This document shows positions 11,403-14,695 of a stretch of DNA of 17,364 nt, piece by piece. The stretch lies in the IMG/VR virus record IMGVR_UViG_2703718840_000006. One strand, 5' to 3'. Position numbers and translations under genes: made by a program. Under the pieces are notes generated by a model, which made no database searches, was not told where the DNA came from, and saw only the letters and a program-made list of their open reading frames with translations. Source of the DNA: a virus. Lineage: Duplodnaviria > Heunggongvirae > Uroviricota > Caudoviricetes. Positions within the stretch are counted from its first letter, which is position 1, and the number at the start of each line of letters is the position of its first letter.

Positions 11403-11765
11403 TTAACGACCTGCTGCGCGGAGTTTTCCGTCAGGTTCACCGGCAAGAGTCAGTAATTGTCCCTGGTCTTCCTGCAGAATAGTCAGGCGACCACCGCGAT
11501 TGACATACATCGGCGTTTCGGTGGTGTCTTCTTCGGAAATTTTCCCGCGGTTAGTCGGGCGAACATATGAGAGTTTGTGTTTGATTTTCACACGGTTCTC
11601 ATCAAATGGTTCGATTTCCAGGTTGAGTGAGACCTTACCTTTGGTTTTCGTGTTCATCACACCGGAAGCGACTTCACTGAGAACTGCGCCGATTTTTGTT
11701 TCAAATACGCCGCCGTCCAGCTCCCCGATAAATGCCTGCACATCAGTACTGCGTTCGCTAGCCAT
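11403..11765 (-). CDS. Hypothetical early-left phage protein (YfdP-like by size and synteny)
   Basis: Start set at the internal ATG (MASERSTDVQAF) with AGGAGC 7 nt upstream, giving 121 aa. The 197-aa track ORF has a Cys/Arg-rich N-terminal extension that overlaps the leader and looks non-genic. Confidence 0.55.
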   Translation of the reverse strand: MASERSTDVQAFIGELDGGVFETKIGAVLSEVASGVMNTKTKGKVSLNLEIEPFDENRVKIKHKLSYVRPTNRGKISEEDTTETPMYVNRGGRLTILQEDQGQLLTLAGEPDGKLRAAGR

Positions 11766-12373
11766 TTTGTTGCTCCTCATCATATCGACCCTGCAAGGCC
11801 GATTAGTTTCTCCACAAAACAGAGAAGAACACCTGCGGTGGCAGCCGCCCGGATGGATTGGGTTATGAGCCCGTCGTCCGGTGATGCTCTTCTCTGTTTT
11901 GTAAAAAGAGCGGTACCAGCCGGAAGCAAGTGTACAAACTGGTACCGCCAAAGCAGTGGCTGTTGTGGTGGGGTTGTCACTCAGGCGTATGGTCAACCTG
12001 ACAATCCGGTGTCCTCAACGGGGAAAGAGTAACCCCGCCATACTTACCGCCGCGCCATTTCGCGGATGACCACAACGCTGAGAGCACTTAGCCAGTTACG
12101 GCACCACACTTTGTCGCGGCTCCATAAATGCCCTCATCGTTGCACCCTGGTCTCTTCCCAGGCGTCAAACCGGATCGCCACGCTGGTTAGGCGTCTTATC
12201 AGCATCATCATTGACTTGCACATTCCGGCTACCTGGTTTGTTTGCCCTAGCAAGGAGTGGATTGTCCCCTTTAACGTCCCCAGACCGCTAACGACGCATG
12301 TGCCATACGCCGTGTTACAACCAAATTTTGTTAGTACCTTGTTTGTTGGTCTGGAAAGAAAGATAAAATGAAA

Positions 12374-12411
12374 TTGCGCGTTGTGCAAGTGCTTTGTTGC
12401 GGGATATGCAA
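12374..12411. promoter_or_regulatory. Candidate OL operators: two 15-bp TTGC-N7-GCAA sites, with probable leftward pL
   Basis: TTGCGCGTTGTGCAA (12374-12388) and TTGCGGGATATGCAA (12397-12411); the first is nearly identical to an OR site (TTGCGCGTTAAGCAA, 13180-13194). Just downstream of the cI terminator, as in lambdoid immunity regions. Confidence 0.45.
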
Positions 12412-12428
12412 TTTAATGGGTAATGAAA

Positions 12429-12446
12429 AGCCACCTTCGGGTGGCT
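12429..12446 (-). terminator. Intrinsic terminator downstream of cI
   Basis: Perfect 7-bp stem AGCCACC/GGTGGCT with TTCG tetraloop; on the minus strand it is followed by UUUUCAUU. Located 20 nt after the cI stop. Confidence 0.5.
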
Positions 12447-12466
12447 AATTGATGAGGAGGTAAGGG

Positions 12467-13159
12467 TTAATTGTGTCGCTTAAGGGTTTGTGACTGGCTG
12501 ATTAAGACCTTTCCAAAGACCATAAACCGGTGTTCATTTTCGCTGGTAATTCCCCATTCACGGTAAATCTGGTTATCAGAAATCACCAGTAGTTTGTCAG
12601 GTATCATTTGCAGTCGTTTGACATAAATTTTATCATCAAAACCAAATACATAGATACCATCTCCATCAAACTGATTGATACTGACATCAACGAAGATGAG
12701 ATCTCCTGGCTCAATGGTTGGACACATACTGTCCCCACGAACGTTGATAACTTTAATGTGATTGGCTGGTCGTCCGCCAAACATCGATACAGCATTATCA
12801 GTTCTGTATTCAATGGCATGAATCACATCAATGACATCACCGCCCTGGATAAGGCCATTTCCCGCACTGGCACTGACATCCAGCATTTCAATACGGAATA
12901 CATCCTTCACCTGCGCAACATCCTCACTAATACTGTTTTTACATACAGTATTACTTTTGAAGTCTGAGGTAAAGAGATCAGCAATATCAACACCTAAGCT
13001 CCTGGCAATATTACTCAGGGCTTGTTCAGTGAATTGTTTCTGCTTACCTGTTTCCAGGCGTGAGATATTCGCCGCATCCACTCCTATTGCTTCAGCGAGA
13101 TCGGCGATTTTCATGTTCTTCGCCTGGCGAAGTTGTCTGACTCGATTTCCTATGTTCAT
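12467..13159 (-). CDS. cI: CI-like phage repressor (HTH_XRE N-terminal domain plus S24 LexA-like autopeptidase domain)
   Basis: 230 aa. N-terminal HTH (IADLAEAIGVDAANISRLETGKQ); C-terminal S24 signature GDSMCPTI (Ser nucleophile) and downstream VKR (Lys). Divergent from a cro-like gene across an operator-rich 97-bp intergenic region. Confidence 0.9.
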   Translation of the reverse strand: MNIGNRVRQLRQAKNMKIADLAEAIGVDAANISRLETGKQKQFTEQALSNIARSLGVDIADLFTSDFKSNTVCKNSISEDVAQVKDVFRIEMLDVSASAGNGLIQGGDVIDVIHAIEYRTDNAVSMFGGRPANHIKVINVRGDSMCPTIEPGDLIFVDVSINQFDGDGIYVFGFDDKIYVKRLQMIPDKLLVISDNQIYREWGITSENEHRFMVFGKVLISQSQTLKRHN

Positions 13160-13256
13160 GCGTTTATTACATTTCTTTATTGCGCGTTAAGCAAATCAAC
13201 TTGCGCAAAATAGTTGCGTGAAATAATATGCTTATCACGCAATATGTGGAGGTTAT
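13160..13256. promoter_or_regulatory. OR-like divergent promoter/operator region between cI and cro
   Basis: TTGC-N7-GCAA site at 13180-13194, degenerate copy ATGCTTATCACGCAA at 13228-13242, palindrome TTGCGCAA at 13201-13208, inverted TTGCGTGA/TCACGCAA arms. Candidate pR: -35 TTGCGC (13201-13206), 17-bp spacer, -10 TAATAT (13224-13229). GGAGG RBS at 13248-13252 before the cro ATG. Confidence 0.55.
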
Positions 13257-14332: not shown

Positions 14333-14695
14333 ATGCTCTTTGACTTGGCTTCCGGGGACGCACTATTTATCTCTGAACCAGGCCCATTAGCGGAAAATGT
14401 CACCTGGTTGTCGCCGGAAGGGGAATATCAGAAGTGGAACGGTACAGCCTGGGTGAAAGATGCAGAAGCAGAAAAACTATTCCGGATCCGGGAGGCGGAA
14501 GAAACAAAAAACAGCCTGATGCAGGTAGCCAGTGAGCATATAGCGCCGCTTCAGGATGCTGTAGATCTGGAGATCGCAACGGAGGAAGAAAATTCGTTGC
14601 TGGAAGCCTGGAAAAAGTATCGGGTGTTGCTGAACCGTGTTGATACATCAACTGCACCTGATATTGAGTGGCCGATAATTCCTGTAACATCATAG
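14333..14695 (+). CDS. tfa: Tail fibre assembly protein (lambda Tfa family, short form)
   Basis: 120 aa; ATG with AGGGGA upstream. Sequence [14 protein letters not shown]...[19 protein letters not shown]...[25 protein letters not shown] closely matches my recollection of the lambda Tfa C-terminal two-thirds. Confidence 0.8.

Follow-up and report, generated by a model that had tools for sequence, protein, structure and literature searches.

A predicted DicF/sRNA-17-type small RNA among conserved RNA structures in the probable early-left leader of a lambdoid prophage

DicF (RF00039), a small RNA of the Qin dicBF operon, occurs as a 190-nt species whose 5' end is formed by RNase III and as a 53-nt species formed by RNase E, both of which derive from the operon transcript, no internal promoter having been found (PMC10448788). 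A second prophage RNA, sRNA-17, of 193 nt, has been defined by 5'/3' RACE and northern analysis in E. coli K1 RS218, within a prophage of the mEp460 type, where its deletion raises yfdP about 95-fold; its authors reported neither a relationship with DicF nor RNA structures flanking it (PMC7719688). The put element of phage HK022 is an RNA of about 70 nt with two stems, present in left and right copies, downstream of PL and PR, and acting in cis through the beta-prime zinc-binding domain to render RNA polymerase resistant to terminators. The locus described here resembles each of these systems in part, and its centre is an RNA of the DicF/sRNA-17 kind, a processed prophage small RNA.

The stretch of DNA analysed, hereafter the window, comprises 17,364 nucleotides of a viral genome (IMG/VR record IMGVR_UViG_2703718840_000006), and the prophage concerned is lambdoid, of the mEp460/SfV/CPS-53 type. 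Leftward of its repressor gene lie yfdP and then yfdQ (DUF2303). Between yfdP and the repressor gene, over 11766-12466, no credible gene is found; the gap in question (11766-12373) belongs to this interval, and the features around it are the following.

12467-13159, minus strand: repressor-like gene, HTH and Peptidase_S24 (Pfam).
12421-12446, minus strand: intrinsic terminator that follows the cI-like repressor gene, with AGCCACC-CGAA-GGTGGCT ahead of TTTTCATT (terminator scan).
12360-12411, minus strand: putative OL/pL, with -35 TTGCAC (12388-12383), a spacer of 17 nt and -10 TATCTT (12365-12360).
11403-11765, minus strand: yfdP, opening gene of the early-left operon (ORF list; PGAP on a 99.7% identical locus).

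A pattern search for the palindrome TTGC-N7-GCAA returned three sites in the whole window against 0.57 expected, at 12374-12388, 12397-12411 and 13180-13194, thus on both sides of the repressor gene. This placement is as expected for operators and supports reading the first two as OL and the third as OR; the restriction of the sites to the flanks of the repressor gene also bears out the proposal, made from the letters of the DNA in a sequence-only reading, that pL/OL lies at the edge of the gap. The putative pL hexamers overlap the first operator and would place the transcription start near 12353, giving a leader of about 590 nt, although this promoter is not among the sites picked out by a consensus scan. 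The earlier description of the gap as GC-rich also held, with a G+C content of 0.53-0.58 over 11700-12300 against 0.37-0.46 in the flanks. On the other side of the repressor gene, in the rightward early operon, 14454-14652 (plus strand) gives a full-length Rfam match to IS009 (RF02111, 220 bits), at the position held by a Rha-family gene as judged by homology to strain CH4797.

The gap is non-coding. In an E. coli chromosome that matches it at 99.7% identity, PGAP leaves the interval from yfdP to the repressor gene unannotated; no ORF in the gap has a Pfam match, and the ORFs are short and mutually overlapping. Their overlap had been noted in the sequence-only reading, together with the statement that all use non-ATG starts; the former stands, while the latter does not, as an ORF of 101 aa at 12066-12371 (plus strand) begins with ATG. 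This ORF also lacks a Pfam match and is not conserved. It may nevertheless be asked whether the gap encodes one or more small proteins, be it this 101-aa ORF, the ORFs of mEp460 and SfV, or an N-terminal extension of yfdP, given that the ORFs exist and that some phage records annotate "hypothetical proteins" across the gap. Such a coding function is highly improbable, since in addition to the missing Pfam and PGAP calls the ORF lengths range from 0 to 99 aa among homologues, codon periodicity is absent, substitutions are compensatory within helices, and hairpins (P3 of module A and the inner hairpins of module C, both described below) vary in length. In module C, variability at the three positions of a 3-base period is 0.239, 0.228 and 0.245. 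A conserved protein-coding gene, which would have spoken for a different reading, was thus found neither by Pfam or PGAP nor by ORF conservation or 3-base periodicity.

RNA structure is evident instead. On the minus strand, 11760-11960 folds at -90 kcal/mol against -59.7 +/- 4.4 for shuffled sequences (z = -6.8), and the whole leader gives z = -4.2 against shuffles. Similarity searches split the gap into pieces, each with its own distribution, which in the direction from pL to yfdP on the minus strand are termed modules C, B, T1 and A. Folding and covariance analysis, as suggested with the first reading, revealed compensatory changes in all four modules across genera and phage families, and in modules A, B and C G-U pairs greatly outnumber C-A combinations when the minus strand is read. 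Every module is therefore under minus-strand selection for RNA base-pairing. No Rfam family matches the gap in the window or in seven homologous leaders at the gathering score or at E <= 10, the hits of these searches being limited to tRNAs, int-alpA in phage Tyrion and, outside the gap, IS009 in the window. ARAGORN reports neither tRNA nor tmRNA in the window, and a full-text literature search with conserved strings of modules A, B and C found no paper. Modules A and C are accordingly conserved RNA structures absent from Rfam. Strings resembling UGCUCUU and GGCGGUA were considered as boxA or RfaH-ops elements and rejected, their bases covarying as helix strands without conservation of sequence.

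The centre of the leader is formed by module B and the terminator T1.

11962-12076, minus strand: module B, a 115-nt domain (homology to Qin, covariation).
12076-12070 with 11968-11962, minus strand: module B closing stem, GUUGUGG with CCACAAC.
12065-12050, minus strand: inner hairpin CCGCG/CGCGG of module B, whose other inner hairpins are GGGG/CCCC and UUGUCA...UGACAA, the latter with the conserved loop GGUUGACCAUACGCCUGAG.
11903-11950, minus strand: T1, a DicF-like intrinsic terminator, UUUGGCGGUACCAG ... CUGGUACCGC UCUUUUU (perfect inverted repeat).
11948-11939 with 11919-11910, minus strand: T1 stem, with the U-tract at 11909-11903.
11904-12077, minus strand: predicted DicF-type long-form small RNA of 174 nt, consisting of module B, a linker (11961-11951) and T1.

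Both inverted repeats singled out in the sequence-only reading fall within these features: GCGGTACCAG/CTGGTACCGC is a perfect repeat of 10 nt (11910-11919 and 11939-11948), and CCGCG...CGCGG lies at 12050-12065. The former is the 10-bp, G+C-rich stem of T1, with a hairpin energy of -21.2 kcal/mol and a U-tract behind it; a consensus terminator scan missed it because of its 19-nt loop. Module B was compared over 29 diverse copies, in which pairing extends to 98% of cells, both partners have changed in 10 of 23 pairs, and G-U occupies 51 cells against 2 for C-A.

The relationship with DicF is close. Nucleotides 12076-11954 are 88.6% identical over 123 nt to the segment of K-12 Qin that ends just before dicF, and the Rfam DicF match in Qin (76.7 bits) directly follows this module-B-like segment, so that the same domain of about 115 nt precedes in both cases. 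Both are found in a repressor-controlled leftward operon of a lambdoid prophage, with a Rho-independent terminator starting UUUGGCGG, and the long form of DicF begins 1-2 bases before GUUGUGG, as would that of the window; counting 190 nt back from the terminator U-tract in Qin leads to the same GGTTGTGG motif. DicF differs in the linker and the hairpin loop, the parts expected to pair with targets, the position that reads UUUGGCGGUAUCAGUUUUAC...GCCGCCCUUUUU in DicF being UUUGGCGGUACCAGUUUGUAC...CUGGUACCGCUCUUUUU in the window. Its downstream partner is dicB rather than module A and yfdP, while the RNA of the window occupies a leader position, without upstream genes and with module C before it. 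The Rfam DicF model does not match the window at the gathering score, nor 11650-12500 at E <= 10, and the sequence is not one that is filed as DicF itself.

The relationship with sRNA-17 is also one of shared ends. The sRNA-17 primers (PMC7719688, Table S2) match the window at 11904-11935 and, with CGTTGTGG, at 12077; the primer sites span 194 nt in mEp460 and 174 nt (12077-11904) here. The 3' hairpin and U-tract of the gap are thus those at which, according to RACE, sRNA-17 of a sister prophage ends, and the 5' motif CGUUGUGG and the closing stem are likewise common to the two. Their loci correspond as well, sRNA-17 lying between a cI-like gene and yfdP with module C upstream and module A downstream. 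What differs is the interior, of which about 100 nt in sRNA-17 form an unrelated module, and hence the length (193 nt against 174 nt); the alignment with mEp460 falls into two pieces that together take in only 85% of the query. The copy in the window would fall in the "degenerative" class of sRNA-17 of the original authors (PMC7719688).

Taken with the fold z-scores and the compensatory changes, the sRNA-17 3' end and the homology to the DicF precursor uphold the earlier suggestion of a structured leader or small RNA, and module B with T1 constitutes the positional and sequence counterpart of both the 190-nt DicF species and the 193-nt sRNA-17. Copies differ from one another in the linker that leads from module B to the hairpin and in the hairpin loop, so that the family gives the impression of a fixed precursor domain to which interchangeable functional ends are attached. 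With regard to targets, RNAduplex predictions of the small RNA against the ftsZ leader are to be read in the light of the fact that even true DicF is not separated from shuffles by this procedure. By inspection, the DicF stretch CAGUUUUACUCC is replaced here by CAGUUUGUACAC, and the anti-Shine-Dalgarno ACUCC is thereby lost; ACUCC, which faces the ftsZ ribosome site in our own DicF-ftsZ alignment, is missing from the window.

The same unit is found in phage P1, where module B and a terminator lie right behind the ban promoter, partly under the annotation "dicF-like region". The ban leader resembles the window in the order of module B and intrinsic terminator after a repressor-controlled promoter, and P1 also possesses module C; it departs from the window in having module C 2 kb downstream, a different type of terminator hairpin and no module A. 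In the P1 sequence (AF234172), module B and the terminator occupy 230-375, of which the "dicF-like region" label covers only part, and module C occupies 2501-2685, between trnI and ban, in a stretch without annotation.

Upstream of module B, the leader is taken up by the largest of the modules.

12073-12326, minus strand: module C, about 250 nt, just after pL (covariation, 47 copies).
12313-12291, minus strand: hairpin H1.
12233-12215, minus strand: 19-mer GGUAGCCGGAAUGUGCAAG, which was the search pattern.
12194-12191 with 12183-12180, minus strand: stem S1 of an H-type pseudoknot.
12188-12185 with 12171-12168, minus strand: pseudoknot stem S2, AACC with GGUU.
12162-12146, minus strand: hairpin H5.
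12142-12129 with 12086-12073, minus strand: terminal long stem.

Module C was aligned from 47 copies with pairwise identity below 90%, in which the 19-mer GGUAGCCGGAAUGUGCAAG is invariant by selection, having served as the search pattern. Compensatory changes are found in H1, in the P2 stem (a long-range helix of GC..UCUGG with CCAGG..GC), in S1, in S2 and in H5, and the terminal long stem is also listed among five helices backed in this manner. In the pseudoknot, CACC/GGUG is swapped jointly for AACC/GGUU. G-U pairs are frequent with almost no C-A, and one hairpin carries the loop GAAGAGA. Module C starts within tens of bases of the pL -10 here and in other lambdoid loci. Beyond these it is found between trnI and ban in P1, in the 5' leader of tRNA-Arg in Uetakevirus, and after tRNA-Ile in a P1-like plasmid; across 149 unique copies it is followed by modules B and A in 40, by tRNA-Arg in 26 and by the sRNA-17-type module in 19.

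At the boundary between modules C and B, the 3' strand of the terminal C stem ends CGUUG, and GUUG (12076-12073) also opens the closing stem of module B, so that it may pair either with 12139-12142 (module C stem) or within 11962-11968 (module B stem) and the two stems are mutually exclusive. It is exactly at this boundary that the 5' ends mapped for sRNA-17 and for 190-nt DicF lie, which suggests that an RNase III cut in the C stem frees module B. The sharing of GUUG could in this manner represent a processing-driven switch.

In the original interpretation of sRNA-17, an ArcA-controlled promoter is proposed inside what is module C here (PMC7719688). The small RNA would then be transcribed independently under ArcA regulation, and 12080-12326 would be promoter DNA rather than RNA. 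The level of sRNA-17 is ArcA-dependent, the stretch was used as the "PsRNA-17" fragment, and the RNA was detected in an LB-grown lysogen (PMC7719688), when pL should be repressed. However, 12080-12326 shows deep conservation as an RNA structure, its changes being compensatory and its G-U pairs specific to one strand, it is present in P1 and Uetakevirus with no such small RNA after it, and the consensus scan shows no promoter-like site within it. The qRT-PCR amplicon of the same authors, running from 12326 to the small RNA, spans the supposed promoter, and transcription must then start further upstream, at pL or from the repressor gene; for DicF, too, an internal promoter was not found (PMC10448788). 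An independent ArcA-regulated promoter is hence regarded as unlikely.

A different function for the leader would be processive antitermination by RNA, with module C or module A acting in cis on the polymerase so that it passes T1 without N, in the manner of HK022 put or Bacillus EAR. As had been read from the DNA at the outset, the ORF list shows no N-like gene between pL and yfdP, and yet the leader holds T1, a strong intrinsic terminator; a new type of RNA antiterminator, for which module C is the best candidate, would explain how the polymerase passes it. Module C has a conserved pseudoknot, lies close behind the pL -10 in lambdoid loci, much as put RNAs lie just downstream of PL (PMC9378689), and precedes tRNA-Arg and a gene in Uetakevirus and ban in P1. 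Set against this, module C is mid-operon in P1, and a terminator of this kind is passed, or tolerated, in both P1 and Qin with no module C upstream. As to put itself, the likeness consists in a cis element within the early leader of a lambdoid phage that has no N-type gene there, while the leader, of about 590 nt and four modules, is unlike put in size and architecture. The PL-nun region of HK022 shows no similarity to it, blastn of the leader against the HK022 nun-cI-cro region giving nothing better than E = 0.89, and no part of the leader has a second copy elsewhere in the window, the best match being at E = 0.43; the rightward promoter is thus without a second downstream copy, in an operon covered to 17364. 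The specific proposal of an element of the HK022 put type was consequently not upheld, and antitermination by RNA in general appears rather improbable here.

Downstream of T1, the leader ends in module A and a hairpin that precedes the first gene.

11809-11909, minus strand: module A, a three-way junction (alignment A2, 31 sequences).
11907-11903 with 11813-11809, minus strand: P0, the T1 U-tract with GGAGA.
11902-11883 with 11833-11814, minus strand: P1, a 20-bp stem.
11881-11849, minus strand: P2, an arm.
11848-11835, minus strand: P3, a hairpin of varying length.
11773-11803, minus strand: P4 hairpin (11803-11784, loop UGCA), then the yfdP Shine-Dalgarno GAGGAG (11778-11773) (fold).
11860-11873, minus strand: P2 tip CGGGCUCAUAACCC, which matches the anticodon stem-loop of E. 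coli tRNA-fMet exactly over 14 nt.

In alignment A2, comprising 31 non-redundant sequences, 93.7% of the cells in module A are paired and 13 of 39 pairs are changed on both sides; none of 500 shuffles reaches the observed covariation, and slid controls pair in only 40-55%. P4 likewise shows compensatory changes (alifold columns 150-153 with 165-168). A search of reference genomes seeded with YfdP found about 130 nt upstream of yfdP homologues to be conserved in about 15 genera. The genes directly after module A are of the YfdP type, RdgC, or a YfbR-like HD protein, and this variety of first genes makes an operon-level role more likely than a yfdP-specific one. A T-run lies just upstream of module A in 109 of 111 loci; the simple criterion of a hairpin abutting the T-run was scored by 42 of the 109 and was dropped as evidence. 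A small upstream ORF starting from GUGGAGAAA was considered and discarded, indels of 1 and 2 bases breaking its frame among homologues.

Several further observations concern this region. The loops of P3 (11839-11844) and P4 (11792-11795) often read UUGCAG or UGCAG, containing the self-complementary UGCA, and a P3-P4 loop-loop contact is conceivable, with no covariation seen on inspection of A2. In Phytobacter prophages (L019, 2722-2800; L024, 1186-1264), the terminator hairpin ahead of module A has a tRNA-Ile gene as its immediate upstream neighbour, from which it follows that real tRNA genes can occupy this leader. Enterobacterial DNA of the yfdP type also occurs on a 240-nt contig of a Fredinandcohnia assembly and on a contig of a Chryseobacterium assembly (L014 and L023), where it is probably contamination of the assemblies.

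The tip of the P2 arm resembles an initiator tRNA. CGGGCUCAUAACCC covers three G-C pairs and the loop CUCAUAA, and three G-C pairs mark initiator tRNAs. For an exact 14-mer match, about 0.015 chance matches to any tRNA are expected, and this is the only exact copy in the window. The identical stretch is displayed at the apex of a hairpin within an untranslated 5' leader, and beneath its G-C pairs, unlike in tRNA-fMet, the next two positions are mismatched; the E. coli tRNA-fMet sequence used for comparison was taken from PMC8887418. ARAGORN and the Rfam tRNA model were both negative for a tRNA cloverleaf in the window. The variation of the tip was studied in a set gathered by a pattern from another part of module A, which avoids selecting on the tip itself, and in which CAU is kept in about 93% and the loop AA is UC in about 30%. 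The resemblance to initiator tRNA is thus common, though not universal, in the module A family. Pairing of the CAU loop with the downstream start codon was examined and set aside, nothing consistent being found beyond the AUG when RdgC-type and holin-type genes are included.

In another phage, a cut-down module A with the same tRNA-like tip (L128, 11780-12170, plus strand) lies in a late-operon leader: a Q antiterminator gene is followed by a TTGACA/TATGTT promoter and a pair of intrinsic terminators, then by the element, and finally by an S-type holin. The holin context recurs in L069, and L139 and L141 carry the same variant element.

From these features a further, doubtful possibility arises, namely that modules A and C are undescribed phage RNA families dealing with the tRNA or translation-initiation machinery of the host. 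The tip of module A, presented in the 5' leader of the opening gene of long phage operons, could be a decoy or sensor for a nuclease of the tRNA-fMet anticodon loop such as VapC; it could alternatively gate translation as an operator, through occupancy of the 30S P site or binding of MetRS. The tRNA-mimicking mRNA operators, such as that of thrS, offer a comparison. Module C, which is found in the company of tRNA genes and small-RNA precursors in lambdoid phages, P1 and Uetakevirus, could serve as an antiterminator independent of put or as a platform for processing.

The reading preferred here, and considered likely, is that the gap is an untranslated pL leader on the minus strand, built from the independently conserved modules C-B-T1-A and acting through processing. 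Transcription from pL, or read-through from the repressor gene, would make module C first. RNase III would then cut the terminal stem of module C 1-2 bases before GUUGUGG (about 12077), freeing GUUGUGG to close module B, and a 3' end formed at T1 (about 11904) would yield an RNA of the DicF type, about 174 nt long, with possible further trimming by RNase E. T1 would also limit transcription into yfdP and the genes beyond. Module A would fold only in read-through transcripts, as its helix of 25 bp (P0 and P1) includes the T1 U-tract; this helix is a likely second RNase III site, at which small RNA and mRNA would be parted, and the helix and P4 would jointly set the translation of the first gene. 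A cut in the module A helix has its analogies in DicF processing and in the lambda N leader, and we infer the RNase III and RNase E cleavages, the efficiency of termination at T1 and the effect of module A on yfdP by analogy. Against the scheme stand the negative result with the Rfam DicF model, the linker and loop that differ from those of DicF, the different interior of sRNA-17 and the promoter proposed for it, and also the fact that P1 and Qin carry the unit of module B and terminator without module C, which is consequently not required for making such RNAs.

This reading explains a long gap left blank by annotation in about a thousand complete E. coli genomes and likewise in numerous phages of Shigella, of Salmonella and of the Shiga-toxin kind. 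In very well-studied phages, among them P1, it brings to light three RNA structures with strong covariation and no Rfam entry, one of which bears the initiator-tRNA look-alike. The recently reported, virulence-linked sRNA-17 is tied to classical DicF, with a prediction of how sRNA-17 is made. DicF-type RNAs appear as a modular family, in which a conserved precursor domain is combined with an exchangeable pairing region and hairpin, and this offers a route to more prophage regulators of host genes.
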